NCBI GenBank assembly: GCA_035384565.1
Contig: DAOOIT010000002.1
Coordinates: forward strand, 8,579 to 72,578
Reading direction: 5' to 3'
Length of the DNA: 64,000 bases
From: Planctomycetota bacterium
GTDB taxonomy: Bacteria > Planctomycetota > PUPC01 > DSUN01
The notes under the pieces: model-generated
The model's input: only the letters and a program-made list of their open reading frames with translations
Told to the model about the DNA's origin: nothing
Databases searched by the model: none
Program-made: the position numbers and the translations under genes
In this document: positions 37,542 to 62,393 of the stretch, one piece after another
How positions within the stretch are numbered: the stretch's first letter is position 1
Layout of the letters: every line of letters begins with the position of its first letter

Positions 37542-37555
37542 AGGAGGACACGAGG

Positions 37556-38920: not shown

Positions 38921-38970
38921 ACTGCCACGGGGGAGTTGGCGACCGCAACACCGAGAAGAGGAGATGAACT

Positions 38971-41081: not shown

Positions 41082-43283
41082 TCAGTGCCGCTGGGAAAGG
41101 GGCGCCCATCGGCTCTGGCCGGCAGCGACGAGGATGGCTCGAAGGTTCTGAAGGTAGAAGGGGTCCTGCGTCACCTCCGGCCACGGCAGGTTCTCGAGGA
41201 GCCACTCGGGCGTGCCGTCGAGGACGAATGCCTTGACCTGATAGTAGGGCGTGATCCCACCCCAGTTGTTCATCTGGTCCTGCGAGAACTGGTTGAAGGT
41301 CTCAGGCCAGAGCCAGGTGAAGAAGTCCCAAACGACGGCGACCTCGCCCTTCATGTGATCGCGCCAGAAGCGGTGCATCTCGTCGCGGGCGAGGGGGAAG
41401 ATGCCTGTCCAGGGGGCCAGGAAGAGCGTCGGGTCGCCCTCGGGGCCGGGCCCGTGGGTCGTTATCCACCAGTTCACCTTCGTGTCATAGATGATGTCGG
41501 TCTTGCGGGCGAGGTGGTCGGGCAGGACGCCGGTGAGGTGTCGGAAGCGGTTGGCGCCCGACGTGTGGTCGCGGCCCATGTAGCTGGCGATGTAGTCGGT
41601 GCCGAAGAAGTGGGCATACCAACCGACGAGGTGCTTGGCGACGAGGTAGGCGGCCTTGCCATACGCGGCTTCGTCGCCCAGGGCCTTCATCAGGCGGGCG
41701 TAGGCGATGAGGGCGTTCACCTGCGCAGTGTGGCAGAAGCCGGTCGTCGCCCAGCCTTCCACGGCAAAGCCGAGGAGCCAGTTGTGGCGGGTGAGCACGT
41801 GGTTAGCCATTGCATCCAGGAACGCCCGATTGGGCTTTACGGCGTCAAGGTCGCCCGTGTAGTGGGCGTAGGCCCAGACAGCGGAGAGCGCGATGCCGTT
41901 GTAGAGGTCCTCGGATTCCCAGACGCCGCTGATGCTGCGCTCGGACTTCGGGCGGAGGACGGCCACCTGTCCCGACGGTGTGCGGACGGTTTCCTTGAGG
42001 AAGTTGGCTTCGGCGAGGACCTCGCCCAGCATCGCCTTGGCACGTGCCTTGGCCTCTTGCCGGAGCTCGGGCTTGAGCAACGGCAGCGATTGGCAAAGGG
42101 AGAAGAGCTGCTCGTTCCTGGCCCCGAAGCGGAAGAACTGGTAGTTGGAGGAGCTTGAGAGCCAGCGGAAGGGCTTGTCGCTCTTGAGGATCTTCTCCAC
42201 CTGGGCGTTCAGCTTCGCAAGGGCCTCTTTGCTTATCGGGTCGTCGCCTGGCGTGATCTCAAGCACTTCGTCAACGTATCTGCGGCCGCCGGGGAAGCGG
42301 AGGGTGTGGCTGTCGCCTTCGCAGGCCAGGAGCGGGCCGTTGACCGTCGGATACGACAGGTCGGTTGGAGCGGGCGCGACTTCTATGGGCAGCGGCCCTT
42401 TGCCTGCGAAGGCCAGGGCAATGCCGAGCGCGGGGGGCAGAGGGGCGAGCTTCTCCCCCTTCGTGCCCCAGTCGTCTTTGATCTCTTCGCAGTCAAAGCC
42501 CTGGCGGACGCTCACCGAGCCATCGGCTCCCAGGCGGTATTCCTCCTTGCACGCAACGGGGAAGAAGCGGCTCATTCGGACGAGGCGTCGGCATCGCTCC
42601 CTCACCTCGGCCGGCAGTTCCTCCTTCCATGCGCCTGTCTCGGAGCCCCTGAGCTTCCTGGCCCCGAAGAGCGGCATCACCTGCATGACGCCGGCCGGCT
42701 TCTCGCCGAAGTCCAGCACCACCGCGCCATGGTGCCCGACGCCCTTGAGCCTCGTTTGCAGGGTGATGAGCATCGGGGCGTCCACCCCGACGACCGCCGG
42801 CGTGCCGTGGACGGCGGGAATCTGGCCGTCGCTGAACCCCTTCGCTTTGTGGAAGGAGACCAGTGCGAACGGCTCGGAGAGGGGTGCCCTGGTCTGCGTA
42901 GGGGCAGCGCCGGCGAAAAGGGCTATCTTGCGTGCATCGGTCCGAATGAGTACCGCTGGCGAAAGGTTGCTCACCCATAGCTCGAGCGCGCCGGCCGCGC
43001 TCTCGAAGCGGCACCTGGCCGCGCACCAGTCGGCGGAGACCAGTGTGGCCTTCACTGGGCCGTCGCCGGGCAGTCGGACCTCGCCAAAGCCGAGCTCGGT
43101 TCCCCGCAGGGCGAGCTCGGGCCAGGCGTTGGGCTTCAGCTTCACCGTGAGGGCCATGCCAAGCACCTCGCGGCCGGGCTGCCAGAAGGTGCCCATCGCC
43201 GCCTGGTCAACGCCGCGCGACCACTCGGCGCCGGCCGCGAGCGCGGTCAAGACTGAACAGATGGAGAAGACGATTGGCCTCAT
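41082..43283 (-). CDS. Large secreted hypothetical protein (733 aa) of unknown function
   Basis: Signal peptide MRPIVFSICSVLTALAAGAEW; start assigned by the ATGA overlap with the upstream PQQ gene (43280-43283); the 1018-aa track ORF N-extension is Arg-rich junk. No recognisable catalytic motif. Confidence 0.6.
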   Translation of the reverse strand: MRPIVFSICSVLTALAAGAEWSRGVDQAAMGTFWQPGREVLGMALTVKLKPNAWPELALRGTELGFGEVRLPGDGPVKATLVSADWCAARCRFESAAGALELWVSNLSPAVLIRTDARKIALFAGAAPTQTRAPLSEPFALVSFHKAKGFSDGQIPAVHGTPAVVGVDAPMLITLQTRLKGVGHHGAVVLDFGEKPAGVMQVMPLFGARKLRGSETGAWKEELPAEVRERCRRLVRMSRFFPVACKEEYRLGADGSVSVRQGFDCEEIKDDWGTKGEKLAPLPPALGIALAFAGKGPLPIEVAPAPTDLSYPTVNGPLLACEGDSHTLRFPGGRRYVDEVLEITPGDDPISKEALAKLNAQVEKILKSDKPFRWLSSSSNYQFFRFGARNEQLFSLCQSLPLLKPELRQEAKARAKAMLGEVLAEANFLKETVRTPSGQVAVLRPKSERSISGVWESEDLYNGIALSAVWAYAHYTGDLDAVKPNRAFLDAMANHVLTRHNWLLGFAVEGWATTGFCHTAQVNALIAYARLMKALGDEAAYGKAAYLVAKHLVGWYAHFFGTDYIASYMGRDHTSGANRFRHLTGVLPDHLARKTDIIYDTKVNWWITTHGPGPEGDPTLFLAPWTGIFPLARDEMHRFWRDHMKGEVAVVWDFFTWLWPETFNQFSQDQMNNWGGITPYYQVKAFVLDGTPEWLLENLPWPEVTQDPFYLQNLRAILVAAGQSRWAPLSQRH

Positions 43284-44635: not shown

Positions 44636-44637
44636 GG

Positions 44638-46395
44638 TTACTCCCCCAGTCTGGCGGCTGCCTCAAGGAGCTTGCGGCGGGCCTGGTTGAACTCGGCGGG
44701 GTCGAGGGTGTAGTCGGTGAGGCTGCGGACGACGCTGCGGCAGATGGCATCGGCCTCCTGCGGCCTCTTCGCGGCCAGGAGGCGGAGGAGCTCGTAGTCC
44801 TCAATCCCGTCGCGCATCGCCTCGTAGCGGAGGCTATCGAGCGAGTGGAGCTTGTCCTCGGAGGACGGTGCGCCGCGGAGCTTGGCCACGCCGGGATAGA
44901 CGAGCGTCGCGTCGCCCGGCGGGTCGCCGGGGTTCTGAAACGGGTTTCCCCACGAGGGGTTGAAGCCCCAGTGGAGGTAGCCGGTGGTGCCCGTGGCGAA
45001 GTTGGCCCAGTGGAGGAGCCGCGTCTTGATGAGCGGGTAGTCAATCAGGCGGTTCATGTACTTGCCGCGCGGGCGCTCGCAGGTATAGAACCACACCTCG
45101 TCGCCGGCGGCCTGGCGCTCCTGGAAGAACTTCATCTGGCGGTCGAGCTGGTCAAGGAGCGGCGCCCAGATGTCAAGCGCCCCGACGATGTTGGTCGCGC
45201 GGATGGCTTCGGCGCGGCGGAGCTTCGGGGCGTACTTCTTGACGAGCTGCCCCAGCCGCACATAGGCCGCCGCGTTGCTCCCCACCGGCTCGTCGGCCTG
45301 GAGCTGGATGTAGCTCTCCACCCAGCCCTTCTCCTCAAGATGCTTCTGGAAGGCGGGGAGGAACGCAGCAAGATACTTCTCAAAGGCATCCGTCATCACG
45401 AACACCCGCTTCCTCGCCTCTTCCTTCGAGGCTGGGTCCTCGGGCGCGGGGAATTGGCCTTTGGTGCCATCGGGCTTTGTGAGCGGGAGAGGGATGGCAT
45501 AGAAGTCCTTGGACATCCATTCGTGGCGGCCTGCGAGCGCGGAGCCCATGACCCACGGCAGGCCCGCCTGGCGGAAGGTCTCGACCATACGGTCGAAGTT
45601 AGCGAAGTCAAACGCCACGGCGCCCTTCTCGTCCTGAACCGCGCGGACGGTCTCGTGAAGCGTCACGTGGCCGACGCTCTGGCGGTGGGCAGCCATGCTC
45701 GCGGCGTCGGCCTCGATCAGCTTCCAGTGCTTCTCCGACCACCACGGGGCCTGGTACATGTGGGTGAGGACGACGGGGTAGTACCAGTTGACCACCTTCA
45801 GGCTCATCTGGCGGGGGACGCGCGCGGCATAGACCCTGACACTGAGCGGCACCTTCTGTTCCACTCCGTCCGCCGCAATGGCCACGTGGCCCTCGTAGGT
45901 GCCCGGCGCCGCGTCGTCGGGGACCGCCACGGTGAGCCACACCGCGCCGGTTTGCCCGGCCTTGGCGGAAATGGAGCTGTCCTCGAGCAGCGGGTCGGGC
46001 AGGTCTACCGGCGCCTTCGCCACGAGGACCTGTTCGCCTGTTTCGGCGAGGTGTGGCTCCGTGTTCTTCTTGATGGGCACATAGCCGACGAAGCGGACCC
46101 GCGGCATTGCAAGCTCGGCGCCTGCCGCCGATTTCAGCACTGTCGCCGACGCGGCGAGCCTGGCCACATCGGCCGTTGTGCGGAAGGCGATCTGGCCATT
46201 CTCGACCTCGCTGCGGGCGGCCTCTATGATGACGCTTCTTGGTGGTGCTGCCGGCGGCTCATCCGTGCGAAGCACCTTCACCAGAGGGTCCACGGCCCAC
46301 ACCCGCAGCCCGATCTCGGCAGCGCGCGCGCCGCCCAAGCCGATCGCAAGGACGCACAGCTCTCCCACGGCGGCAGGCAGCCAAGACCCCTTCAT
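44638..46395 (-). CDS. Secreted hypothetical protein, possibly glycoside-hydrolase-like (DUF4091-type, tentative)
   Basis: Signal peptide MKGSWLPAAVGELCVLAIGLGGARA (start about 46395; the track ORF starts at 46488); C-terminal region ...DYPLIKTRLLHWANFATGTTGYLHWGFNPSW...DGIEDYELLRLL. The family call is from memory, not verified. Confidence 0.5.
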   Translation of the reverse strand: MKGSWLPAAVGELCVLAIGLGGARAAEIGLRVWAVDPLVKVLRTDEPPAAPPRSVIIEAARSEVENGQIAFRTTADVARLAASATVLKSAAGAELAMPRVRFVGYVPIKKNTEPHLAETGEQVLVAKAPVDLPDPLLEDSSISAKAGQTGAVWLTVAVPDDAAPGTYEGHVAIAADGVEQKVPLSVRVYAARVPRQMSLKVVNWYYPVVLTHMYQAPWWSEKHWKLIEADAASMAAHRQSVGHVTLHETVRAVQDEKGAVAFDFANFDRMVETFRQAGLPWVMGSALAGRHEWMSKDFYAIPLPLTKPDGTKGQFPAPEDPASKEEARKRVFVMTDAFEKYLAAFLPAFQKHLEEKGWVESYIQLQADEPVGSNAAAYVRLGQLVKKYAPKLRRAEAIRATNIVGALDIWAPLLDQLDRQMKFFQERQAAGDEVWFYTCERPRGKYMNRLIDYPLIKTRLLHWANFATGTTGYLHWGFNPSWGNPFQNPGDPPGDATLVYPGVAKLRGAPSSEDKLHSLDSLRYEAMRDGIEDYELLRLLAAKRPQEADAICRSVVRSLTDYTLDPAEFNQARRKLLEAAARLGE

Positions 46396-46504
46396 CCAGG
46401 CGCTCCTTTCAACACGAGAGCTCTCCCACAGCCGCAGTCTAGGCTGCCTGGCATCCGGAATCAAGCAGCCATAGCCACCTTCCGCCACCGCTCAGGGTGC
46501 AAGC

Positions 46505-46765
46505 CGGGTGTGGGCCGGAATTGTAGGCGGCTGCGGGAGTTCCGAAGGAGCGAAATAGGATAGCCCAGGGCAACGCCCTGGGAACAAGACCGCCCCGCGG
46601 CAGCCCTGACAGGGCGGAATCGAGAGCTTCTATCTCGCCCCTTCAGGGCTGGACTCGTGGATCCCGCTGAACCCAGGGCGTTGCCCTGGGCTATCCCATG
46701 CGAGCCCTTCAGGCTCCAGAGACAATCACCCTGCCTGCAATTCCGGCCCGCACCCGTGCAAGCCG
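46505..46765. repeat. Nested inverted-repeat element in the divergent intergenic region
   Basis: Inner arms ggatagcccagggcaacgccctggg (about 46557-46581) and cccagggcgttgccctgggctatcc (about 46669-46693) are perfect reverse complements about 90 bp apart, and each arm is itself a hairpin (cccagggc-aac-gccctggg). Outer arms ggtgcaagccgggtgtgggccggaattg (about 46505-46532) and caattccggcccgcacccgtgcaagcc (about 46737-46763) give 18 of 19 matches in the core. Confidence 0.5.
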
Positions 46766-46906
46766 CTTGACTCGCCTCGAGGCGGGGCATATCTTCTCCC
46801 TGGGGAGCATGCTGGGTGGACCGCTGCGTGACATGCTGGGGGCCCGTGATCCCGGAGATACGAGATGAAAGAGGCTGCGTGTACGCCCCGCGAAGCGGCG
46901 GCCAGC

Positions 46907-48259
46907 ATGGCCGCCTTCGCCGCAGGGATTGTGGCCGTTGTGGCGGCAGCTTGCCAGGGAGCGGATTGGCCGCAGCTCCAACACGACGCCGCGCGCAGCG
47001 GCTACACCAGCGACGGCCCAAAGCCGCCCTTCCAGCACGCCTGGAACTACGACTTCGCGGCCAAAGAGCACGACAAGATTCACCCGGTCGTGCAGGCCAT
47101 CATCTACAACGGACGCGTGTTCGTCCCGTCCAAGACTGGGCGCGTCTACGCTATTGACGCCACGACTGGCGAAAGGGCGTGGAAATGGGAGAAGGCCGGG
47201 CCGATCCTCAACTCGGTCGGATGCGCCGATGGCCTGGTCATCTTCGGCAGCCTGGACGGCAAGGTCTACGGGCTCAAGGCGGCGGATGGCTCCAAGGCCT
47301 GGGACTTCTATGGCGGCATCCGCGGCTTCTGCACCGCTCCCTGCATCGCCGAGGACAAGGTCTTCATCGGCGCGCGCGACGGCACGTTCTGCTGCCTGGA
47401 CGTGAAGACGGGCAGGCGGCTTTGGGCGACCGACACGGGCGGCTACGTGTGGCACACGGCCGCCTGTGCCGACGGCCGCGTGTTCGTCGCCAACGAGGAG
47501 ATCAGAGTTCTGTGCCTTGACGCCCGCGACGGCAAGATCCTCTGGAAGTCGAAGCGCCTCTGGGGCTTCACCTTCCGCGACGGCAACGCCTTTGTGGATC
47601 AGGGCAAGGTCGTCGTCCGCACCTGGAGCGCGATTGACGACACGGACCTCCGGATCGCGAAGGCGAGCATCCAGGAGGCCACCGACGCGGGGCATTATCT
47701 CAGGATACCCGACGAGCTTCAGGACAAGGCGCTGGAGGCCCTCCGCCGCGAGCCCGAGCTGAGGCAGGAGCTCTTCGTCCTGGACGCAAAGACGGGCGAG
47801 GAACTCTACATGCCCGTCCACAGCGGGCGGGTTTCCACCGTGGACGGGCCGGCATTCTCCGTCTGCCGCGACGGGGCGGGCAACTGGTATCTGCCGATTT
47901 TCGCCGGCCCGATTGCCGCCCCCTGGGGCAGCACGATGGCCTTCGCACGCATGGACCCGAAGACTGGGCGCCTCTCCGAGTTGCTCTGGACGCCGAAGTG
48001 CAAGCCCGCGAGCAACGACGAGGCCCACGCGCTCTCCGTCGGCGGCGATATCCTCTACGTCTCCGAGCAGGAGGAGGGCGAGGCGGGCATCTTCTGCGCC
48101 TTCGACCTCACCAGGCCTTTGAAGCTTGACATCCCGACCCCACAGATGGGCTCGGACATGGAGTACAACGCCCAGCCTCTTGCCAATCCCATCGCCATCG
48201 CGGGGAAGCGCTTCTATCGCATCACCAACCATACCCTTCGCTGCTGGGTGGGGGATTGA
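46907..48259 (+). CDS. Secreted PQQ-like beta-propeller repeat protein (paralog of 43280-44635)
   Basis: Signal peptide MAAFAAGIVAVVAAACQG; blades VFVPSKTGRVYAIDATTGERAW, VIFGSLDGKVYGLKAADGSKAW, VFIGARDGTFCCLDVKTGRRLW, VFVANEEIRVLCLDARDGKILW. Confidence 0.75.
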   Translation: MAAFAAGIVAVVAAACQGADWPQLQHDAARSGYTSDGPKPPFQHAWNYDFAAKEHDKIHPVVQAIIYNGRVFVPSKTGRVYAIDATTGERAWKWEKAGPILNSVGCADGLVIFGSLDGKVYGLKAADGSKAWDFYGGIRGFCTAPCIAEDKVFIGARDGTFCCLDVKTGRRLWATDTGGYVWHTAACADGRVFVANEEIRVLCLDARDGKILWKSKRLWGFTFRDGNAFVDQGKVVVRTWSAIDDTDLRIAKASIQEATDAGHYLRIPDELQDKALEALRREPELRQELFVLDAKTGEELYMPVHSGRVSTVDGPAFSVCRDGAGNWYLPIFAGPIAAPWGSTMAFARMDPKTGRLSELLWTPKCKPASNDEAHALSVGGDILYVSEQEEGEAGIFCAFDLTRPLKLDIPTPQMGSDMEYNAQPLANPIAIAGKRFYRITNHTLRCWVGD

Positions 48260-48262
48260 GAA

Positions 48263-50800
48263 ATGGCCGCGAGACGCACGCTCCCGCTCCTCCTGGCCTC
48301 GCTTCTCTCGAGTCCTGCCGCGCTCCCCGCGGGAGAGGATGAGTATGTGGGGCTGCACTTCACGAAGCAGCCCGACGGCAGCGTGATCGCCGGCGGTCTC
48401 GGCTGGCGAGCGGCGACCGAGAAGGACGGCATCCGCCTCGGCCGCCGCGCACACATCTGCTTTGAGGAGGGCGGCTACGGGCTGGAGGGCTGGTGCACCT
48501 ACGCCGGTTCGGATTGGGCCGACATCGGCCTCGTGCGGCCCGGCCCTGCGGCGCTCACGCCCGAGGACTCCGAGTCCTCCTGGGCCACCGTGCAGAGCTC
48601 GTTTGCCTACCAGGAGGGTGGCAAGGCTCAGACTTTCAGAGTATACGTCACGCGTCTCTCGCCTGCCGTGGTCTTCGAGCTGACGGGGAAAGAGCTGCGG
48701 CTCTTCGAGGGCGCGAAGGTCTCCAAGTTCGCCCGTGGCGATGCGAGCTGGGTGCCGCCTGAGCAGCGCCTGTCCGTCCCGCCGCCGGTGCCGAAGCACT
48801 TCGCCACCGAGGGCGCGGCGACATCCCGCGAGGAGATCGGCAACCTGGCGGTCAAGAGCTGGCTCCTGGCGTGGTACGGGGTTGACTCGCGGATTCGCGC
48901 GGAGGCCGACATCGGCCATCGCACCATCGCCGTGGACTGCCCCGTGCTTCTCGTCTTCAGCGCGCCGCCGGCCACGCTCGCCGCCGGGCCGGACGGCCTG
49001 GCCGTCGCGTTCGCAAGCGAGGGGGTTAAACGTGTCGCAGTCCTGCCGCTTCTCGGCGAGCGCTTGCCGAAGGCCGTCCCTGGCGAGAAGCCGAAACCCT
49101 ATCCGGCTCATGTCGGTGCCTTCCGGGCGAATCACGAGTTCCAATTCGCCGATCTCCCGCCAACCGAGACATGGAAAGATGGGCTACCCAAGGAGGTCGC
49201 CGCGCAGTGCGCCTGGTGGGCCGAGCACCTGAGGGAAGTGCCGGTTAGTGTGACTGAGACACACGCCTACCACGCCGCCGCCGACACGCTCACCGTAACG
49301 GGCAAGGTGGAGTTCCTGCGGCTCGCCGATGGCGGCAAGCGCTTCGCCCCGCTCCCGCCAATGCTTGCGGTGGCAGCAAGGAAGAAGTTCTCGCCGCTAA
49401 GCCTCCGGGGAGAACCCAGCAGCTCCGGCTTCATGACCAAGTGGGGGCCGTACGTGGGAATGGAAGGTGGCGACGGCTACGCCTACTCTGTGAAGGGACT
49501 AGGCCGTTACGCCTTTGAGGTTCGCTCGACCGGAGAAGGCAAGGAGCCCGAAGAAGTGCGCCGGGCCTTCGACCGCGAGGTCGCCAAGGTCATCGAGGCC
49601 GGCATCATGGCCCCCTGGTTCCCCATCCTGGCGGTCGGCGGCTTCGGCGGACGCGCCAGCCGCGCCCACAACGAGGGCCATCGCCTCCTCTGGGGCATCC
49701 CTGGCGAGAACCTGTACTTCATCGGCCAATGCCTCGACCTCGCCACCCCCGAGCACCGCGCCAAGCTCACAGAGCTGGCCCGAGCCTGGGAAGCCAAGTA
49801 CCCCTCCGAGAAGGTCGCCCACATGCCCGCCACTGCCGACGCCCAGCGCGAGCACTACCTGCCCACCATCCACAAGGTCCGCCCGTGGCCGCAGCGGGAG
49901 TTGAACTTCCACTTGCTCAACAACGTCCTCCCCTGCGAAGCCGAGTACTATCTGGCCGACTACTGCCGCTACGCGGGCGAGAAGCCCGCCGCCCTTCCGC
50001 GCATCCTGGAGCCCTACCTCGCCCGCTCGGACTGGGCGTCCCTCGGCCTCCTGCGTGGGGCCAAGACCCTGTTCAAGAACGACAAGGGCCGCGACACCTT
50101 CGACCGCGACTACGGCAAGGGCGGCGTGGACGACGCCAACCGCCTCTTCGCCGGCCTGGTCGGACGGGTTCGCCTGGCGCGTATGCTCGGCAACCAGGCC
50201 GAAGTGGAACGCGCAATGTACCATCTCGCCCGCACAGCCATCCTGCGCTTCGCCATCGAGCAGTGGAAATACATCCTCCACGAGGACAAGTTCCTCGCCC
50301 TGCGCCCCGCCGACGCGCCGCCCCGCAGCTTCTTCGGCACCGGCCTCCACACTTTCGGGCGCAAGACCCCCGACGACGACCCGCTCGTCGTCGCCGAGAT
50401 GGACGAGTTCCTCCTCACCATGCGCGAGTGCTACGTCCACGTCCACTGGCACCCCCACCGGCTCATCGCCTACCTCCACATGGTCCCGGAACTTGGCCGC
50501 TTCCTTCAAGACCACCTCAAGGCCGAAGTCGGCCACTACGTCCGCATCCTCGAGGAGAGCAACCCCGAGTGGTACACGCCCTACGCCGACTGCACGCTGT
50601 CGTTCGAAACCTACAGCCTTCATCCGGCCGACTCCTACCAGGCCTTCCTCGCGCGGGCCTGGGTGACAGGCGACCCGCCTGAGCGGCTCTGGCGCTACGC
50701 CGACCTCCCCTGGATTGGCCGCGGCGACTGGTTCTACATCCACAAGCTCGCGGAGACGATCAGGGCATACAGAGGCGAGCGATGGGAGGCGTTGAAATGA
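48263..50800 (+). CDS. Large secreted hypothetical protein (845 aa)
   Basis: Signal-like N-terminus MAARRTLPLLLASLLSSPAALPAG; long, well-behaved ORF 4 nt after the preceding gene; no family recognised. Confidence 0.6.
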   Translation: MAARRTLPLLLASLLSSPAALPAGEDEYVGLHFTKQPDGSVIAGGLGWRAATEKDGIRLGRRAHICFEEGGYGLEGWCTYAGSDWADIGLVRPGPAALTPEDSESSWATVQSSFAYQEGGKAQTFRVYVTRLSPAVVFELTGKELRLFEGAKVSKFARGDASWVPPEQRLSVPPPVPKHFATEGAATSREEIGNLAVKSWLLAWYGVDSRIRAEADIGHRTIAVDCPVLLVFSAPPATLAAGPDGLAVAFASEGVKRVAVLPLLGERLPKAVPGEKPKPYPAHVGAFRANHEFQFADLPPTETWKDGLPKEVAAQCAWWAEHLREVPVSVTETHAYHAAADTLTVTGKVEFLRLADGGKRFAPLPPMLAVAARKKFSPLSLRGEPSSSGFMTKWGPYVGMEGGDGYAYSVKGLGRYAFEVRSTGEGKEPEEVRRAFDREVAKVIEAGIMAPWFPILAVGGFGGRASRAHNEGHRLLWGIPGENLYFIGQCLDLATPEHRAKLTELARAWEAKYPSEKVAHMPATADAQREHYLPTIHKVRPWPQRELNFHLLNNVLPCEAEYYLADYCRYAGEKPAALPRILEPYLARSDWASLGLLRGAKTLFKNDKGRDTFDRDYGKGGVDDANRLFAGLVGRVRLARMLGNQAEVERAMYHLARTAILRFAIEQWKYILHEDKFLALRPADAPPRSFFGTGLHTFGRKTPDDDPLVVAEMDEFLLTMRECYVHVHWHPHRLIAYLHMVPELGRFLQDHLKAEVGHYVRILEESNPEWYTPYADCTLSFETYSLHPADSYQAFLARAWVTGDPPERLWRYADLPWIGRGDWFYIHKLAETIRAYRGERWEALK

Positions 50801-51282
50801 GGCTCCTCAGGGTCTGGCGATCCTGACGCGGCCGCTGCCGGGGAGGGTCGGAAGGGGGCTCCGGCACCCGCGAGGGCCATCGCATAACCCTCTATGTCCC
50901 ATCGCCTTACGCTCCTCATGCAGCCCCCATGGCATGCCGGCTCATCCCGCAGATGAGCGAGCATGGCCGGAGCCGCGAGAATCGCCCATTCTCGCCCATC
51001 TGCCCATGCTGTATCACTTTCCTCCTCACAGGGTTGATACAGCATGGACACGCTGCTCCCGCCCAGGCACTCGGGTGCGCCCTCCCAAGGAACTGCCAGG
51101 GCCGCGGCCCCCTCAACGGTTCAGGCGCCCGATGGCCAAGGTGCAGCGGGCCGCACAGCGGCAGACCGAGCGCGTGCAACGGGGCGTTTGACAACGGCGG
51201 CGCGGAACTGGTATCCTGCAAGGCACCTGGGGCGGCTTGCCCCGACGCAGCAGGAACCGGCCACGAAGGAACCGCAAGCCAG

Positions 51283-51368
51283 GCCGGAGTGGCGGAATGG
51301 CAGACGCGCTGGATTCAAAATCCAGTGGCCGCAAGGTCGTGAGGGTTCGACTCCCTCCTCCGGCACCA
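51283..51368 (+). tRNA. tRNA-Leu (anticodon CAA)
   Basis: GCCGGAG-TG-GCGG-AATGGCAGA-CGC-G-CTGGA-TTCAAAA-TCCAG-[long variable arm TGGCCGCAAGGTCGT]-GAGGG-TTCGACT-CCCTC-CTCCGGC-A-CCA gives a cloverleaf with a 7/7 acceptor stem, anticodon loop tt-CAA-aa, a long extra arm typical of Leu, and an encoded CCA. Confidence 0.85.
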
Positions 51369-51522
51369 ACGACGCAGCACGCGGCAGGGCAAGGAGCCAT
51401 GTCATCCTGCCCTGGCCCTCTCCCATCTCACCTCTGGTGTCTCGCTCCACAGCCCGCTTTGCCATGATCCGTCTCCAGGCAATGCCGTGCGACCCGGAAC
51501 GACCCCAGCAGGAGGAGCGCCG

Positions 51523-55038: not shown

Positions 55039-55087
55039 ACCACGCCCGGGGCGCTCTGCCTGCGAACCGGCCGCGCGGGGCCCGCGT

Positions 55088-56521
55088 CTACCGCTTGGGT
55101 CCCCGCTCCGCAAGGAACGCCCGAAGATAGGCTTGGCGGAACTTCTCCATCGCCTCGCCGCTCGCGACGCAATCGTCCCACGGCAGGTCGGGCCTCACGG
55201 GCGGCTCATAGGCGGGGGGCTGGGCGCGGTGCCGCGCCGCCAGCTCGCGGAAGACGCGGCCCCAGGCCTTCTCCCTGCCGTCCACCGTGAACAACCCCGT
55301 CAGCCGGCTCACGTCCCTCGCTTCGGGGTGGTCGTACAGGCCCCAGTTGAGCCAGCCGCAGGCGATGGGCGCGGTGACCTCGACCACGCGCCGGCACCAC
55401 TGCGCTTGCTGCTCCTCGGTGGCAGGCTTGCCTCCGGCGTCGAGCGGCCCGCCGCCGTACCAGCCGAACTCCGCGATGACGAGCGGCAGCCCGGGCCTTG
55501 CCGCCTCGCGCGCCATGGCCTCCAGCACCGCCAGGTTGGCGGCTTCGGCCTCCGGGCTCTCGTACCTGTAGGCCCCGCTCGCCAGCGGGTAGAAGTGCAG
55601 GGACATGAAGTCCAGGTGCTTCGCGATGGCGGCCGGCCGGAAACCCGCATATTGGTCCAGGCCGATCTTCTGCGCCGGAACCGACCATTGGATCAGGCCC
55701 ACTGTCACCAGCGCATCGGGGTCGGCGGCACGAATCGCCTGGGCCTGGCGCGCGACCCACTTTTCGGCCGCGCTCTCGCGGAACCGCTGGTAGTCGCCCG
55801 CGTGAGCCGCGGGCGGCTGCGCCTTCGGGTCGGGCACGGGGACTGGCTCCTGGCCGTGCTGCTTCCGCCAGGCGTCCCACTGGGTGCGCAGGTGAGGCGT
55901 GTCCCAGGCCACGGACGGCTCGTTGCGGAGGTCATAGGCCCAGAGGGTGGTCCGCCCCCGATAGCGCGTGGCGAACAACCGCCAGTAGTCGTCGAGGGCC
56001 TGGAGGCAGGCCTCGTGGGCATCGAGGCTGAAGAAGTTCATCCCCTTGGCCCACGGCGGCATGCCCTCCCAATGGTCGGGCCCCGTGGGATGGACGTACA
56101 GCCCCGCCTCGTCGGCCAGGTCGAGCAGCTTGTCGAACTTCGCCAGCCCCTCGGGGTCGAGCCTGTCGGGCTCCTTGAAGAACGAGCCGAAGGATGCGAA
56201 GACCCGCACCACGTTGGCGCCGAGCTTCCGCAGCAGGGCGAAGTCTCTGCGGGTGGCCTCCGCATCGAACTGCTTCCACAACTGCGGCGCCCAGCCTGTC
56301 CCCGGCCGGTAGTAGCTCACCCCGAAGGGCACGAAGGGCCGGCCGGCGGCGTCCACGAAGCCGCGGCGGGCAGTGTCCACTCGCACCTTCGGCAGACGCG
56401 TCCCCGGCGGAACGGCGGCGTCTGGCTCCCCTGGTGCGGCCAGGAGGACAAGGGGTACCATTGCGGTGAGCAACACGGTTCGCGCCTCGCTGTGTTCGAG
56501 ATGGGTTGTCCGCCCGCGCAC
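55088..56521 (-). CDS. Secreted glycoside hydrolase family 5
   Basis: Signal peptide; GANVVRVF..., acid/base LRNEPS, nucleophile region LVIAEFGW (the GH5 NEP/E(F)G motifs); 477 aa. Confidence 0.75.
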   Translation of the reverse strand: MRGRTTHLEHSEARTVLLTAMVPLVLLAAPGEPDAAVPPGTRLPKVRVDTARRGFVDAAGRPFVPFGVSYYRPGTGWAPQLWKQFDAEATRRDFALLRKLGANVVRVFASFGSFFKEPDRLDPEGLAKFDKLLDLADEAGLYVHPTGPDHWEGMPPWAKGMNFFSLDAHEACLQALDDYWRLFATRYRGRTTLWAYDLRNEPSVAWDTPHLRTQWDAWRKQHGQEPVPVPDPKAQPPAAHAGDYQRFRESAAEKWVARQAQAIRAADPDALVTVGLIQWSVPAQKIGLDQYAGFRPAAIAKHLDFMSLHFYPLASGAYRYESPEAEAANLAVLEAMAREAARPGLPLVIAEFGWYGGGPLDAGGKPATEEQQAQWCRRVVEVTAPIACGWLNWGLYDHPEARDVSRLTGLFTVDGREKAWGRVFRELAARHRAQPPAYEPPVRPDLPWDDCVASGEAMEKFRQAYLRAFLAERGPKR

Positions 56522-56676
56522 ACGCGGCCCCTTCAGACATGCCTTGGCGCCACCCGCGAGTCAAGTGCCCCGTGCTGGCGCTCTCGGGGGCCGAGGGCGG
56601 GGTTCTTGACACGGCATTGGGGGTGTGCATGATGGCAGCCGGCGGCTGAACGAGAGAGCGGTCCCTTGCGCAAGGA

Positions 56677-59600
56677 GTGAACCCGATGGGGCGAACCCTG
56701 GTGTGTGGCCTGGCTTTCCTGCTGTGCGCGGCGGCCCAGGCCGGCAGCCTGGCGGATACGCCGACGCAGTACCTGATCCGCAAGCCGCCGAAGCCCGTGG
56801 TGATTGACGGCAGGCTGGACGAGTGGGACCTGGCGGCCTCGCCCTACGTCATCAGCCCGACGAGCAAGGACCCGCTCTCCAGCATCCACGCCAACGAGCC
56901 GACGAATCCGCCGAAGGGCGATGCCGACATCAGCGGCCGGGCCGCTCTCGCCTGGGACGAGCAGTGTCTCTACGTGGCCGGCCAGATGGTGGACGACCAT
57001 CTCGTGGGCATCAAGCCCGACAGCGCCGGCAACCAGGGGCCGCCCGGCTGGGGCTGCGACAGCCTGATGCTGCTCGTCCACTCCTTCCGCCAGCCGATGA
57101 AGACCAACTCGCCCTACAGCAAGACCCCCTTCCTCGGTCTCCGCTACGCGCCCACCGGCCCGAATCCGCGCGGGAGGCTGCTGCCCGACGCCGCGGCCCT
57201 CGACAAGCGCGACGCCTATTGGGTGCTCACCGAGAACTCGAAGTGGGCCTGCACCGAGACGCCCCAGGGCTACAACGTCGAGGCGGCCATCCCGTGGAAG
57301 GACCTCGCCTTCGCGCCGCGGCCCGGCGAGAGGCTCTTCATGGCATTCCTCGCCGCCGACATTGATCCCGATGAGGCCCTCAACCAGGTCGGCTGGGGCT
57401 TCCACGGCGAGCCGAAGGACTGCCCGATCTTCCGCCTCGTGGAGCAGGACGACGCCCTCGGCCTCCTCACCCTCTCGATGGACGATGTGCCCTCCAACAA
57501 GGGGCTGGCCGTTCGCGCCGAGCTGGACGCCCTGAAGGACGGTGTTCGCATCGAGGCCATCGTCGTGCGGAACGCCCAGGACAAGGTGGTGCAGGAGGCG
57601 AAGGCACCCCTGGATGTGCCGAAGGGCAAGACCGGCCAGGCACTCGTCGAGCTTTCGCCCATCGCCGAACCGGGCGGCTATCTTGCAGAGCTGGTGGCGC
57701 GGACGCCGCGGGGCGGGGTCGTCGCCGCGAGGGAGCCGTTCTGTGTCGTCGCGCCCGAGAGCGTTAACCTCCCGCAGGTTTCGAAACCTGCGGGAGGTTT
57801 CCCGGGCGAAATTCATCACATGCCGCCCGACCGCATCGCGCACAACGCCTGGAGCGCCCACCGCACCGGCTTCTACAAGCACGGCTACGTCAAGGGCAAG
57901 GAGGACTACGTGCCCTGGCTCCGCAAGTACGTCGAGCCCGGCCTCAAAGGGCGGGCGCAGCAGTACGCCAAAGGCGGCAACCCCTGGGCCTACCGCGAAG
58001 CCTTCCAGTGCCTGGCCATGCACCGTCTCACTGCCGACCCCGAATATGCCGCCCTCGCCCGCGACGTGATGGACGCCATGCTCAAGATCGAGGAAGAGAA
58101 GGGGATGGGCTGGTTCCAGTTCACCAGCACCGCCATGTACCGCTACCTCACGTGGCTGAAGGACCCGAAGAGCCCCTTCGCCCCGCCCGACGCCGAGAAG
58201 CGCTATCGGGCGATTCTGCTCAAGGTCGCCGCACAGCCCGAACCGCACCTTTTCAACGAATCGGGCACCCACAATCGCGTGTGGCACCGCTATTCGATTC
58301 AGAAGGCCGCCCGCCAGGTGGCCGAGGCCGACGGCAAGCCGATTGACCCGCGCATCATCGAATACACCAACTACCACGACAAGCTGATCGGCGCGGTGGG
58401 CGACGACGACGACAACTCGGCGGGCTATCACTGGGTCTTCTTCGATGCCGCCGCCGCGCTCTACTTCCACACGGGCGACTGGGGGGCGTTTGCCCAGCAC
58501 AAGGGCTTCCGCCGCACCCTCGCCCGCTACGTTGAAATGGTCGCCCCCAGCGGCGCCTGCGTCCCCTTCGGCTCCGGCTCCGGCTGGCCCGAGGTCGGCC
58601 ACTCGATGTGGGCCTACGAGTGGATGTCCAACATCACCCGCGACGGCCGCTTCCGCTGGACCAGCCACCGCATCGCCGAGTACTTCTATAATCACATGGA
58701 TTACCGCGCGAACCAGTACCACCTGCCGTTTGACAACGCCCGCGACAACTTCGTCCTCGCCTACCTCTTCGCCGACGATGCGGTGCAGCCGGCCCCGCCC
58801 TCGGGCCAGAGCCGCATCACCTGGCGCCACCCGATGGCCAGGGTGCCGCTCGAGGAGTTGAAGGCCCGGCCCGGCCTGTGGCACCTGCGGATGGACGGCT
58901 CGCAGTGGGTGCCCGACAAGCTGGTGCTCGCCAGCGGCGCCCAGGCGCAGGACCTCTGGGGCCTCGTGGAGCTGTTGCCCCACGGCGGCCACTGCGGCGA
59001 GCTGCCAGGCAACCTCACCAACCTGATGATCCACGACGGCGCGCTCCTCGCCGGCAACGGCTACTACGAGCTGACGCCCGACTTCAATAACATTCTGTGG
59101 GTGGAAGACCTGGACGGCCTGGCCGCCGACCCGCGGCCCATGACCACCGAGGTGCCGGTCTTCGTGGAAGACCCCGCCTTCACCTTCGCCCGCATCAGGA
59201 CCACCGCCTACCAGCACCTGCCGCTCACCTACACCCGCGACATCCTGTTCGTCAAGAACGGCTTCATCGTGGTGAAGGACCGCGTGGAGTTCGGGGCGAC
59301 GATGAAGGTGCGGCTCGGCCCCTGCTACCAGACCCGCAGCCTCGGCCCCGAGTGCGGCGAGAACTGGTTCAACGCCTGGTTCGACCAGCTCTACTACACC
59401 GGCCTCGGCCTCGGACGCGGCGTCCAGGCCATCCGCAATCCCTCTTGGGACCTCCTGGTCTACTTCACGCCGCGTGCCGACCGCACGCACACGGTGCAGG
59501 ACAAGACGATGGAGAACGTGTGGCGGAACGCCCCCGTGCAGTTGCGGCAGGTGTGGTCGGGCATGGCCAGGGCGGGGCAGACGCTCACGTTCACCAGCAT

Positions 59601-59961
59601 CCTCCTGCCGCACGTCCCCTCCATGACCCCGAGCGAGTTCCTCAAGGACCAGAAGCGCATCGAAGTAGCGCACGATGATGACGACCTGACCGTGCTCAAG
59701 GCCACAAGCGAGATGGACCCGATGAACAAGCTCCGCAGTGACACGTGGGTGATGCTCAACACCACGGGCAAGCCCGCCTCCGCCGGCCCGCTGGCGAGCG
59801 ATGGCATGCTCGCCGTCATCGGCCACGACCACATTGGGCAGATTCAGTCCCGCGTCGTCGTTGGCGGCAAGTCGCTCACCTATCGCGGCGCCGACGAATC
59901 GCCCAAGGCCCGCACGCACGAGGCCAAGCCCGCCCAACTTCCCCAGGAACTCCTCGAGTGA
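56677..59961 (+). CDS. Large secreted protein with N-terminal CBM9-like domain and C-terminal lyase/hydrolase-like region (heparinase II/III-like, tentative)
   Basis: Signal MGRTLVCGLAFLLCAAAQA; VIDGRLDEWDLAASPYVISP...GYNVEAAIPWKDLAF is CBM9-like; the rest (about 900 aa) has no firm family call. Contains the in-CDS palindrome at 57766-57799. Confidence 0.6.
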   Translation: MNPMGRTLVCGLAFLLCAAAQAGSLADTPTQYLIRKPPKPVVIDGRLDEWDLAASPYVISPTSKDPLSSIHANEPTNPPKGDADISGRAALAWDEQCLYVAGQMVDDHLVGIKPDSAGNQGPPGWGCDSLMLLVHSFRQPMKTNSPYSKTPFLGLRYAPTGPNPRGRLLPDAAALDKRDAYWVLTENSKWACTETPQGYNVEAAIPWKDLAFAPRPGERLFMAFLAADIDPDEALNQVGWGFHGEPKDCPIFRLVEQDDALGLLTLSMDDVPSNKGLAVRAELDALKDGVRIEAIVVRNAQDKVVQEAKAPLDVPKGKTGQALVELSPIAEPGGYLAELVARTPRGGVVAAREPFCVVAPESVNLPQVSKPAGGFPGEIHHMPPDRIAHNAWSAHRTGFYKHGYVKGKEDYVPWLRKYVEPGLKGRAQQYAKGGNPWAYREAFQCLAMHRLTADPEYAALARDVMDAMLKIEEEKGMGWFQFTSTAMYRYLTWLKDPKSPFAPPDAEKRYRAILLKVAAQPEPHLFNESGTHNRVWHRYSIQKAARQVAEADGKPIDPRIIEYTNYHDKLIGAVGDDDDNSAGYHWVFFDAAAALYFHTGDWGAFAQHKGFRRTLARYVEMVAPSGACVPFGSGSGWPEVGHSMWAYEWMSNITRDGRFRWTSHRIAEYFYNHMDYRANQYHLPFDNARDNFVLAYLFADDAVQPAPPSGQSRITWRHPMARVPLEELKARPGLWHLRMDGSQWVPDKLVLASGAQAQDLWGLVELLPHGGHCGELPGNLTNLMIHDGALLAGNGYYELTPDFNNILWVEDLDGLAADPRPMTTEVPVFVEDPAFTFARIRTTAYQHLPLTYTRDILFVKNGFIVVKDRVEFGATMKVRLGPCYQTRSLGPECGENWFNAWFDQLYYTGLGLGRGVQAIRNPSWDLLVYFTPRADRTHTVQDKTMENVWRNAPVQLRQVWSGMARAGQTLTFTSILLPHVPSMTPSEFLKDQKRIEVAHDDDDLTVLKATSEMDPMNKLRSDTWVMLNTTGKPASAGPLASDGMLAVIGHDHIGQIQSRVVVGGKSLTYRGADESPKARTHEAKPAQLPQELLE
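57766..57799. repeat. Perfect 34-bp palindrome aacctcccgcaggtt-tcga-aacctgcgggaggtt inside the CDS (copy 2 of the element at 31935-31967)
   Basis: The exact reverse complement of itself; arms differ from copy 1 by one compensated position (G/A); encodes ...NLPQVSKPAGGF... in frame. Confidence 0.6.
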
Positions 59962-62393
59962 GCGCATTTGTAGTGCGGGCTTCAGCCCGTATCTTGCTTC
60001 TCGCTTCCACGGCGCTGGCTTACGAGGCTCCGCTGGCCGGCGACGCTGCGACGCTGTTGGATTGGCGCTGGCTTGCGAGGCCGCTGGTGGGGCAAAGGGT
60101 GGTGAGCAACGACCCCTGGGGCAAGCGGAAGCTGGAGCCGACCGAAGGCGGCTTCGTCGCCCTCGACGTCCCCGGGCCTGGAGTGCTCGATCATCTGTGG
60201 ACGCCATCGTCGGCCGGCGCCCTTCCCATCGTCGAGGCAGACGGCAAACGGCAGGAGCACCCGCCCGAGCCGTTGGCCTTCGAGGGCGGCGGGATGCGGC
60301 ATCTCGTCGCGCCCATCGGCTTCCAGAATCGGTTGCGGGTCATTGCGGGCAAGCCGCAATACGCGCACTTCGCCAGCTACCGCGTGTTCCCCAAGGGCAC
60401 GCCGGTGGCCGTGCCTGATGCCGAGAAGCTGAGGGCGGCAGCCGAAGCCTGGAAGATGGGCGGCTTCGGCCTGCACGAGGGCAAGCCATTCACAGAGCGC
60501 CCATTCGTGCTGCCTGCCCATGGCCGCGTCGTAGCGTTTGAGCAAGAGGGGAGCGGGGAGGTCGTTGCCCTTGAGTTCCACATGAACCCCGCTCTGACCG
60601 GCACGCTGCGGGAGGTCGTGGCCGAGTTCACCTGTGATGGGGCGATGGCTCCGTCGCTGCGCATGCCGTTGACCGACCTCGCCGGCGTGCCGCACCCGTG
60701 GCCGACCGGGCGCTGGGACCGCTATAACGGCGACCTGGCGGCCGGCCTGCGGTACCCGTGGTATCTGAACGCGCCGCGCGTCCATTTCCCCCAGGCCACG
60801 GTGCACTTCAACCTTCCCATTCCCTTCGCGCGCGGCTTGCGGATCGAACTGGTCAACCGCTCCAGCCTCACGCAGTTCGTGGGGCACACGCGGGCGGCCG
60901 TGCTGCCTCTGAGCGAGGACGAAGCGGCCCGCTGCGGGCGGCTGTGTGGCACGCGGCTCATCGCGCCCATTCGCCCCGCTGCCGAGCCCCAGCCCCTCGT
61001 CGCGTTGCCAGGGCCGGGCCAGGTCGTGGGCCTTGGGCTGTTCCTCACCGGCAACGCCTTCTGGCCGCCGGCCGTGCACGAGAGCTTTGTGTCGCTCGCG
61101 GCGGATGGCCGCGAGCCGGTCGTCGGCCATGGGTTGCTGCCCCTGTGGTTCCAGGGCATCTACGGCGGGCCGATCACCGGGCTGCCGCTCTGGAACCATC
61201 CGCGGCTGGAAGAAGGCTATGCAGGCGTGATGCGCCACTTCCTCACCGACCCCATTCTGTTCGAGCGCGAGGCCGTGTTCGGCTTCACGCCTGGGCCGAA
61301 GGCCGAGGGCGCGCCCACAAGCGGCACCGTGCTCGCCCTCTGGTATCGCTTCGGCCCGAAGCCCTACGAGGCGCCCGCGCTGCCCGACAGGGCGGAGCCG
61401 CTTCCACACTCCGTCTACCCCGACGAGGCTCCGCCGCCGACCTGGGCGGCGGAGGCCGAGGACCTCGCCCCAATGGCCACGGCCCACGAGACCGAGCTGC
61501 GCGTGGTGGAGGACACGGACCACAACTACCACCCGAACGGCGGGAAGTATCTGCACATCGTGGCCGACAGGCCGGGCGGTTACGTGGACTTTGCGGTGCG
61601 GTTGCCCGCCAGCCGCTACGTCGCCATCGGCGTCTACCCGCTCTGGGGGCCGGGGCGCGGGACGTTCGAGCTGGACCTCCTCTCGCGCGCGGAGGCGCGG
61701 GAGGGGCCGAGCTTTCCCCAGACCGATGCCTTCATTCAGGGGCGCATCCTCGGATCGGTGCCCGTGAAGGCGCCGGTGTTCACTGGCAACGCGCTCGACC
61801 TCCGCCGCGACCCCGGCTGCCACCGCACCCCGCCCATCCTCAATCCCGCTCCTGACCAGCAGGGTGTCCTCCGCCTGGTCTGCCAGGGAAAGCCGCTCGA
61901 CAGCAACAGCCATCTGCTCAAGCTCGACCGCCTCCGCTGCGACACCCCGCCGCCGACGGCCCCTGGGTGGCACGAGTTCGAGGAGCTGCCGATGCCCGCC
62001 ACCTCGGGCGGCCTCGTGGCCGCCGTGCCGAAGTACGGGCGGTTCGAGTGGTCGGGCTGGGGCGCCCTGCTCCTCGAGTCGCCCCCCGGCGGCAAGGCGG
62101 CGATGGTGGCGCTCGCGCCCACGGGCCCCGCTCGCCCGAGGGCGATCACGCTCAAGGGCTGCCTGGGGCCCGAGCAGGGGCGCTGGGCCGCGCGGGCCTG
62201 GGGGGAGGCGGCGGCCGCCGTCGAGCTCTCCCCGGGCAAGGATGCGGCCACCGTGGTCTCCTGGACCCTGCCCGCGGGCGCCCTGAGGCTGCCTGCCCCT
62301 GTCATCCTGGAGCTGACTTGCCTGGCGGCGGGGAAGGGGCAGGAGCGGGAGGCGAAGGCGCAGTTGGTTCTCGACGCCTGGGAGATGCCATAG
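59958..62393 (+). CDS. Large secreted hypothetical protein (about 810 aa)
   Basis: GTG start at 59958 overlapping the TGA of the upstream gene (GTGA); hydrophobic N-terminus VSAFVVRASARILLLASTALA; long clean ORF; no family recognised. Confidence 0.55.
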   Translation: MSAFVVRASARILLLASTALAYEAPLAGDAATLLDWRWLARPLVGQRVVSNDPWGKRKLEPTEGGFVALDVPGPGVLDHLWTPSSAGALPIVEADGKRQEHPPEPLAFEGGGMRHLVAPIGFQNRLRVIAGKPQYAHFASYRVFPKGTPVAVPDAEKLRAAAEAWKMGGFGLHEGKPFTERPFVLPAHGRVVAFEQEGSGEVVALEFHMNPALTGTLREVVAEFTCDGAMAPSLRMPLTDLAGVPHPWPTGRWDRYNGDLAAGLRYPWYLNAPRVHFPQATVHFNLPIPFARGLRIELVNRSSLTQFVGHTRAAVLPLSEDEAARCGRLCGTRLIAPIRPAAEPQPLVALPGPGQVVGLGLFLTGNAFWPPAVHESFVSLAADGREPVVGHGLLPLWFQGIYGGPITGLPLWNHPRLEEGYAGVMRHFLTDPILFEREAVFGFTPGPKAEGAPTSGTVLALWYRFGPKPYEAPALPDRAEPLPHSVYPDEAPPPTWAAEAEDLAPMATAHETELRVVEDTDHNYHPNGGKYLHIVADRPGGYVDFAVRLPASRYVAIGVYPLWGPGRGTFELDLLSRAEAREGPSFPQTDAFIQGRILGSVPVKAPVFTGNALDLRRDPGCHRTPPILNPAPDQQGVLRLVCQGKPLDSNSHLLKLDRLRCDTPPPTAPGWHEFEELPMPATSGGLVAAVPKYGRFEWSGWGALLLESPPGGKAAMVALAPTGPARPRAITLKGCLGPEQGRWAARAWGEAAAAVELSPGKDAATVVSWTLPAGALRLPAPVILELTCLAAGKGQEREAKAQLVLDAWEMP

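Follow-up and report, generated by a model that had tools for sequence, protein, structure and literature searches.

The 64,000-nucleotide stretch of Planctomycetota DNA analysed here (contig DAOOIT010000002.1), termed the window throughout, harbours between 41 and 62 kb a dense cluster of genes for secreted carbohydrate-active proteins, lettered A to J in map order. The genome of origin is probably Thermoguttaceae-like. The best explanation of this region, with a probability of roughly 60%, is a mosaic of independent secreted modules, not one dedicated system. Two types of module would compose the mosaic. In the first, which occurs twice, a beta-propeller accompanies a large protein of an unnamed family, designated family X, and the two would act as a glycanase: B precedes A on the minus strand, behind the GH123-like gene C, and D precedes E on the plus strand. 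The second is the H–I gene pair. The units under selection are these two-gene modules and not the cluster as a whole.

Long spurious open reading frames (ORFs) are common in the window because it is rich in G+C (GC), and 83 ORFs of at least 100 aa lie within 38–64 kb alone. Gene frames were chosen by codon-position GC, the overall GC of this part of the window being ∼0.66–0.72. The four large ORFs highlighted by the original prediction, which had been made from the letters of the sequence, are A, E, H and I. All four are real genes with coding-type codon-position GC (GC at third positions, GC3, 0.85–0.91), and all four N-termini look like signal peptides in translations judged by eye. The prediction had described the four proteins as being of unrecognised family. 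Most of them do lack family-level annotation; however, I belongs to glycoside hydrolase (GH) family 172 and, as A and E are paralogous, the four proteins represent three families. At the sequence level I is the single large protein that maps to a well-known family of carbohydrate-active enzymes (CAZymes); the likeness of H and of A/E to known enzymes is at fold level only.

Family X and its propeller partner

Gene A (41082–43283, minus strand) encodes a secreted protein of 733 aa with an N-terminal beta-sandwich region and a C-terminal helical domain, and is the last gene of the C-B-A unit. Gene E (48263–50800, plus strand) encodes a secreted protein of 845 aa whose overall architecture is GH81-like. 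The two are paralogs (BLASTP 9e-12, 22% identity over ∼580 aa), and neither has a match in Pfam (E ≤ 0.01), NCBIfam or the sequences of the PDB. None of the 16 members of the family alignment (A1) matched a GH81 Pfam model (Glyco_hydro_81 or Glyco_hydro81C), or any consistent family, even at E ≤ 1, and the A1 profile retrieved no GH81 chain from the PDB sequences. A word-indexed search with E returned 23 relatives; Pfam domains were absent from all of them, and the name "hypothetical protein [Pirellulaceae]" was attached to one. The impression of a rare family that this number conveyed was overturned by an exhaustive search with the A1 profile, which yielded 1663 representatives of 50%-identity clusters with E ≤ 1e-3, of which 429 satisfied the stricter limit of E ≤ 1e-30; most are 800–900 aa long. 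Family X is thus large and common, and it is unnamed in Pfam (including a newer precomputed set), NCBIfam, the PDB sequences and PDB fold libraries.

The partners of A and E are secreted beta-propellers of the BamB/PQQ_2 type. B (43280–44635, minus strand, 451 aa; Pfam PQQ_2 5e-46) overlaps A by 4 nt, and D (46865–48259, plus strand, 464 aa; PQQ_2 1.4e-26) is separated from E by a gap of 3 nt. The two propellers are themselves paralogous (29% identity, E 3e-31). Among PDB sequences they match best BamB itself and the designed Cake and Bagel propellers, whose design goes back to proteins of this type; the matches to quinoprotein dehydrogenases are partial.

The association of the two proteins was surveyed in 79 genome loci fetched with the A1 profile, in which ORFs were called anew and searched with the X profile and with B and D. 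A hand tally of record titles assigns 50 of these loci to Chloroflexota, including the cultured Bellilinea caldifistulae GOMI-1, 12 to Patescibacteria (candidate phyla radiation, CPR), 11 to Planctomycetota, three to bins labelled Gammaproteobacteria, two to Acidobacteriota and one to Sumerlaeota. The loci contain 97 ORFs with an X domain. In 59 of these a propeller is fused N-terminally, in 27 it is encoded by the adjacent upstream gene, ten are cut by a contig edge and a single one has no propeller. The X helical domain has a propeller partner, therefore, in 86 of the 87 testable cases. In the fused forms, which occur in many other phyla, the propeller directly precedes the helical domain, which corresponds to X profile positions ∼415–825. 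Five fused proteins show Pfam PQQ_2 in their N-terminal half and no Pfam match in their C-terminal half, one of them ending in a dockerin; one X member carries the propeller at its C-terminal side.

Where the two genes are separate, their arrangement is equally regular. A D-like propeller lies upstream of an E-like protein in 20 of 23 adjacent pairs, and a 4-nt overlap recurs in a Pirellulaceae metagenome-assembled genome (MAG) with a 45%-identical homolog (locus L001) and in a second locus with a 32%-identical one (L004). Across 24 adjacent pairs the similarity of the propeller to B/D tracks that of the X protein to A/E (Spearman 0.85), as co-inheritance of the pair predicts. The propeller partners, aligned with MAFFT in fast mode, also share an Asp-Glu motif outside the blades (D385/E386 in D, encoded around window positions 48017–48022), whose two residues are conserved in 82% and 94% of 78 sequences.

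Neighbouring genes are far less constant. Homologs of C, F, G, H and I do not co-occur with X across the fetched loci; an F-like gene is found only in L080 and a J-like (Gfo/Idh/MocA) gene only in L006. The latter is the closest locus (Thermoguttaceae MAG JBEKTY010000023.1, 6592–18522, 76% identity) and contains three propeller–X modules in a row, two split and the third fused in an ORF that runs off the contig, with three Gfo/Idh/MocA genes before them. An 83%-identical relative (GCA_041320515.1) retains the D-E pair among different neighbours, including peptidase M28 and GH10 genes. The near-universal partnering, the tracking similarities and the differing neighbours together indicate that the propeller–X pair is the unit under selection, and fusion is a textbook indication of parts that act together. 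In two small-genome MAGs assigned to Microgenomates and Woesebacteria (L027, 5532–14390; L064, 2434–11521), fused propeller–(alpha/alpha)6 genes form tandem triplets, with a terminal dockerin in one of the genes.

Structure prediction followed by fold searching, one of the checks that the original prediction had proposed, connects E with GH81 and H with the heparinase II/III fold. The AlphaFold2 (AF2) model of E (predicted local distance difference test, pLDDT, 83.4; predicted template modelling score, pTM, 0.90) comprises beta-sandwich domains at residues ∼30–420 and a helical domain of the (alpha/alpha)6 type at ∼425–845. In a Foldseek search the top 15 matches were all GH81 proteins (E 1e-13 to 3e-8, probability 1.00, template modelling (TM) score 0.42–0.54), followed by GH95 at 3.5e-5, and the GH81-type succession of beta-sandwich, linker and (alpha/alpha)6 domain is present in the model. 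Eight carboxylates (D225, E332, D590, D706, E743, E782, D814 and D822 in E numbering) are conserved among 153 full-length X members, together with many Trp, Tyr and Arg residues. In a set of 94 X sequences that includes very distant ones, E743, W770, E782, D814, D822 and Y825 are conserved at 94–100%; D590 and D706 are conserved less strictly than E743, E782, D814 and D822.

In the mosaic reading set out at the start, the first module would be an extracellular glycoside hydrolase whose catalysis resides in the helical domain of X, and E743, E782, D814 and D822 are the candidate catalytic carboxylates. The propeller would be indispensable to it, either holding the polymer or lining one side of the substrate cleft. 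It may further be proposed, tentatively and at clearly less than even odds, that the propeller, together with the (alpha/alpha)6 protein of GH81-like fold, constitutes an unrecognised glycoside hydrolase family in which the propeller, as an obligate subunit or fused domain, builds the substrate cleft. Such a family would be widely distributed across Chloroflexota, Planctomycetota and Patescibacteria, with one member bearing a DPANN (Aenigmarchaeota) label. In the split form present in the window the GH81-like beta-sandwich would add further binding surface.

Modules fused to X members are consistent with action on carbohydrates: they include GH16, CBM9, dockerin, Laminin_G_3 and GH2_N sugar-binding modules. 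Individual cases combine Laminin_G_3 with a dockerin or carry a dockerin alone (in Daviesbacteria), and others bear PKD, fn3 or esterase modules. A protein of 1140 aa from a MAG labelled Candidatus Aenigmatarchaeota archaeon (P0182) joins a full-length X to GH16 and CHB_HEX_C; its occurrence in a DPANN-labelled MAG hints at cross-domain transfer or a binning error. The X genes of other genomes neighbour CAZyme and sulfatase genes that are different each time. The GH81 fold and one GH16 fusion provide the only specific substrate lead, a weak one, towards beta-1,3-glucan or a related beta-glucan.

Several observations weigh against this interpretation. The identity between E and GH81 proteins is only 9–11%, with TM scores of 0.42–0.54 and no GH81 Pfam match, so that the relationship is one of fold and does not prove membership of GH81. 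The best-conserved carboxylates are located in the last 100 residues of X, and any correspondence to the catalytic Asp/Glu/Glu of GH81 would be conjectural. D822 lies inside the peptide pattern used for fetching loci, as does Y825, and the conservation of both in the fetched-locus set is therefore partly a matter of ascertainment; D822 is nevertheless 96% conserved in the independent set of 153 members, and E743, E782 and D814 fall outside the pattern. The fused forms lack the N-terminal beta-sandwich, which means that the resemblance to GH81 is not established for them. Finally, as neighbours vary between genomes, genomic context gives no clue to the substrate.

Three other accounts of the propeller–X pair have to be considered. 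A and E could be very divergent endo-beta-1,3-glucanases, functionally GH81 and active on fungal, algal or bacterial beta-1,3-glucan, with the propeller as a carbohydrate-binding accessory. GH81 is indeed the sole strong structural match, the GH16 domain fused to one X member also matches SKN1/KRE6, and peat, the source of the MAG with the closest relative, would be expected to contain fungal glucan. This reading is nonetheless unlikely, given that X carries no GH81 signal at the sequence level, GH16 and CBM9 have many specificities and no consistent companions of a laminarin pathway (GH17, GH30, GH3) flank the pair. A non-catalytic surface complex devoted to glycan binding, adhesion or scaffolding, with the (alpha/alpha)6 domain as a lectin or a binding module of the thioester-domain type, appears unlikely too. 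BamB-type propellers are classic scaffolds, some X members bear dockerin, PKD, fn3 or phage-fibre-like modules, and the tandem arrays of small-genome Patescibacteria would fit such a role; however, the full-length fold of E points specifically to GH81 hydrolases, conservation across phyla extends to three or four carboxylates, the GH16 and CBM fusions are typical of enzymes and the neighbourhoods are rich in CAZymes.

The account in which B and D are true pyrroloquinoline quinone (PQQ)-dependent quinoprotein dehydrogenases, oxidizing a sugar that X then processes in an oxidative glycan cleavage, is highly improbable. Matches to Pfam PF01011 (87 bits for B, 39 bits for D) and the nearby Gfo/Idh/MocA and ThuA sugar-oxidation genes speak for it, but the matches cover only profile positions 51–205 (B) and 28–85 (D) of a 595-position model for the full-length eight-bladed PQQ domain, and this partial coverage led to the rejection of B and D as quinoprotein dehydrogenases. 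In addition, the two proteins measure ∼450 aa, against ∼570–690 aa for quinoprotein dehydrogenase chains in the PDB, their PQQ_2/BamB-type scores far exceed those for PF01011, and neither cytochrome nor PQQ-biosynthesis genes were seen in the region. The proposal of a two-component glycoside hydrolase has a number of implications. Should X prove catalytic, it would establish a new family of glycoside hydrolases, distant kin of GH81, with a two-component architecture, and the small-genome Patescibacteria and DPANN members could attack surface glycans of host or neighbouring cells. Having no relative in Pfam, NCBIfam or among the sequences of solved structures, X is missed by genome annotation and CAZyme counts, notably in Planctomycetota, Chloroflexota and candidate-phyla bacteria. 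The near-universal coupling to a propeller predicts that the two proteins need to be expressed and assayed jointly, and may explain how the family escaped functional screens. Literature searches, which also covered "GH81-like" proteins and PDB entry 9M2C, turned up neither family X or an enzyme combining a PQQ propeller with an (alpha/alpha)6 domain nor the near-obligate coupling to a BamB/PQQ_2 propeller.

The H–I module

Gene H (56677–59961, plus strand) encodes a secreted protein of 1094 aa and overlaps by 4 nt gene I (59958–62393, plus strand), whose secreted product is 811 aa long. The 74 relatives of H, ∼1090 aa in length, are mostly from Armatimonadota MAGs, in which their names ("sugar-binding" or "DOMON") reflect CBM9 alone. 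According to the original prediction, this carbohydrate-binding module was the only one recognisable in the large proteins. That statement holds for A and E, which match nothing in the databases searched, and a weak CBM9 is present in H (22.9 bits), but I carries DUF2961 as well (29.4 bits, the cut-off being 27).

The AF2 model of H (pLDDT 85.8, pTM 0.83) is divided into CBM9 (∼23–255), an Ig-like sandwich (260–358), an alpha/alpha toroid (390–700) and a beta-sandwich (713–1080). The N-terminal module is CBM9 by both sequence and fold, the structural match to the CBM9 module 1i82 scoring 16.4. The heparinase II/III-like body matches a series of lyases and an epimerase: heparinase III (4fnv, 23.7), alginate lyase Dp0100 (6jph, 23.4 with 532 aligned), dermatan-sulfate epimerase (6hzn, 22.8), PL40 ulvan lyase (9vtk, 22.5), heparinase II (3e7j, 22.4), PL17 alginate lyase (9irq, 21.6) and oligo-alginate lyase (3a0o, 21.0). 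We take 6jph to represent polysaccharide lyase (PL) family 39 and 3a0o to represent PL15. Sequence comparison does not reveal this kinship: at E ≤ 1 the Hepar_II_III_N/C models of Pfam match none of 25 H-family members, in which CBM9 alone is found, and sequence and profile searches of the PDB with H gave nothing significant apart from CBM9. Judged by its model, H is a protein of lyase or epimerase fold that belongs to an unnamed sequence family.

In the H-family alignment (A2), N533, Y584 and H772 do not vary, and H532 hardly does. Their spacing presumably resembles that of the His/Tyr/His sets of heparinase II and dermatan-sulfate epimerase 1 (DS-epi1), and they may correspond to the catalytic His and Tyr, the second His and the neutralising Asn of heparinase II/III-type lyases; the catalytic reading of H rests on this spacing, a point that counts against it. 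H would be an enzyme of heparinase II/III fold, most likely a lyase acting on uronates, and as such a candidate for a new family of CBM9-anchored lyases. I would then trim its products as a divergent GH172-like glycosidase.

The DUF2961 match of I spans residues 217–463. A 100%-identical database protein (P0243) and most relatives of I carry the precomputed domains PF28588 (GH172_1st) and PF28589 (GH172_dom), and the family profile matches in the PDB 8ah3 (2e-8), 4kq7 (2.6e-7) and the characterised GH172 enzyme 7v1v (0.027). Additional conserved regions lie on both sides of the GH172 core. Neither H nor I matches NCBIfam, and the same is true of C. By these profile matches, I qualifies as a divergent new member of the known family GH172. 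The original prediction had held the catalytic components of the cluster to be mostly uncharacterised: most of the large proteins do lack a named sequence family, but their folds (GH81-like, heparinase II/III-like and GH172) are recognisable.

H and I together form a second conserved module. Their homologs are adjacent in the order H-I in loci L005 and L086 and in the order I-H in L085 and L087; such pairs occur in Armatimonadota without family X, and the data suggest that many relatives of H and I lie on shared contigs. Locus L005, an Armatimonadota contig, accommodates three H paralogs within 20 kb. URO-D-family genes recur beside H/I modules on L005 and on L086, likewise an Armatimonadota contig, and a 410-aa PQQ_2 propeller follows the GH172-like gene of L086.

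Organisation of the cluster

The remaining genes of the region are a varied set. Gene C (44638–46395, minus strand, 585 aa) is GH123-like (DUF4091) and opens the C-B-A unit (Pfam GH123_cat 3.4e-43, Glyco_hydro_123_N_2 6.6e-9). Gene F (51520–55038, plus strand) encodes a secreted protein of 1172 aa with a GH20b-like N-terminus, DUF4838 (8.6e-48), ∼450 aa without a Pfam match and a C-terminal FGE-sulfatase domain (2e-48). F is the largest protein of the 41–62 kb region, although the original prediction did not list it, and its C-terminal domain resembles the formylglycine-generating enzyme. Gene G (55088–56521, minus strand, 477 aa) is a GH5 gene (Pfam Cellulase 9.3e-22) whose frame was set by GC3; the same test disfavoured a plus-strand gene at 55133–56632, which was rejected. 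An alternative start of A at the upstream GTG at 44138 was likewise discarded, as the stretch concerned is the coding sequence of B in another frame. Gene J (62506–63762, minus strand, 418 aa), a Gfo/Idh/MocA oxidoreductase (Pfam GFO_IDH_MocA 2.8e-18), marks the right edge of the cluster. Of the genes that the original prediction described as interleaved with the large ORFs, GH5 (G), the DUF4091 gene (C, GH123_cat) and the two paralogous PQQ_2 propellers (B and D) are in place; the F5/8C protein is not within 41082–62393, being located at 35689–36399, and the gene at 51520–55038 is F.

The noncoding features of the region include a nested inverted repeat at 46538–46699 (no strand), outside the enzyme modules. 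It occupies the divergent intergenic region between C and D and not, as had been supposed, that between the two propeller genes. Its outer arms measure 28 nt (96% complementarity) and its inner arms 23 nt (78%); the left outer arm exceeds the Rfam gathering score for Acido-Lenti-1 (38.7 versus 37 bits), and within the window the arm sequence occurs at these two places only. A tRNA-Leu(CAA) gene (51283–51368, plus strand; Rfam tRNA 60.4 bits, also called by ARAGORN) between E and F splits the cluster. Promoter-like sites are present at 46767–46795 before D, at 51188–51217 before the tRNA gene (a strong site, 10/12 matches, with a TG extension) and before H. The genes alternate in orientation and, taken together with the promoter-like sites and the tRNA gene, define at least five transcription units.

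Upstream of the cluster, 32266–40353 contains genes for an ABC sugar-binding protein, two permeases, the small F5/8C protein, ThuA and two Gfo/Idh/MocA proteins, and possibly represents a unit for uptake and sugar oxidation. The following ∼730 nt (40354–41081), downstream of the second Gfo/Idh/MocA gene and of A, which are convergent, contain no convincing gene; a short perfect hairpin is found there at 40354–40378. Further to the left, GC skew, near zero elsewhere, rises in a sharp spike to +0.265 over ABC-2 transporter and GT4 genes (28001–30000).

The description of the cluster as dense, secreted and carbohydrate-active, in a lineage other than Bacteroidota, is borne out, the closest locus being that of the Thermoguttaceae MAG. 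Its further interpretation as one integrated system resembling a polysaccharide utilisation locus (PUL), in which all genes of 41–62 kb cooperate on a single complex polysaccharide, has become quite unlikely. The secreted genes are certainly crowded together, with GH123-like, GH5, DUF4838, GH172-like and lyase-fold proteins and CBM9; immediately before them come genes for an ABC sugar importer, ThuA and Gfo/Idh/MocA proteins, and the Thermoguttaceae MAG similarly has Gfo/Idh/MocA genes followed by several propeller–X modules. Set against this, the loci fetched with X show no homologs of C, F, G, H or I next to X genes, the D-E pair of the 83%-identical relative stands next to peptidase M28 and GH10 genes, and the Armatimonadota H–I pairs exist without X. 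Only three of nine other genes recur with a partner elsewhere, the two propeller genes (B and D) with A/E and gene I with H, and no SusC- or SusD-like gene is present among the genes of 41–64 kb, all of which are accounted for. The alternating orientations, the tRNA gene, the separate promoter-like sites, the lack of a SusC/SusD pair and the lack of conservation of the neighbours as a unit all argue for a CAZyme-rich mosaic and against a single PUL-like system.

Comparison with known systems

The mosaic resembles the PULs of Bacteroidota in that genes for secreted glycan-degrading enzymes are clustered with sugar-uptake genes. The differences are substantial: the window has no SusC/SusD, uptake would rely on the upstream ABC system (32–35.5 kb) and the genes do not stay together as a set in other genomes. 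The components of the second module likewise combine familiar and unfamiliar traits. H shares with the heparinase II/III-fold lyases (PL12, PL15, PL17, PL21, PL39, PL40) and with dermatan-sulfate epimerase 1 an alpha/alpha toroid followed by an antiparallel beta-sandwich; it differs from the lyases in having no Hepar_II_III sequence match, in its CBM9 and Ig-like domains and in its GH172-like gene partner. I matches the core of GH172/DUF2961 proteins, such as 4kq7 and the difructose dianhydride I synthase/hydrolase alphaFFase1 (7v1v), but is very divergent (E 0.027 to 7v1v). At ∼811 aa it is also longer than the solved GH172/DUF2961 proteins (∼375–460 aa), and it has an extra conserved N-terminal region and a C-terminal extension of ∼350 aa.

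The likeness of family X to GH81 enzymes, represented by BhGH81 (5t4a), RmLam81A (4k35/5xbz) and CtLam81A (6fop), is one of fold, and the conserved carboxylates of X are concentrated in its last 100 residues. GH81 enzymes are not known to have a beta-propeller partner, unlike X, for which a propeller is almost always adjacent or fused. A published precedent for such a domain composition is the GH150 lambda-carrageenase CglA, a polysaccharide hydrolase with a BamB/PQQ-like propeller portion. Part of the likeness lies in weak matches to the Pfam Beta-prop_CGLA model, which stay under the cut-off of 26.8 (21.9 bits for D, 26.2 bits for a fused homolog). No homology of X to GH150, or to the non-propeller part of GH150, was found; a tblastn search with E of a plasmid collection, in which the presence of plasmid-borne cglA is unconfirmed, returned no match. 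AF2 models of GH150 display a conserved catalytic cleft between two lobes (PMC12549532), and when the annotated PQQ-like part of GH150 is removed activity is lower and the products are longer (PMC11202985).

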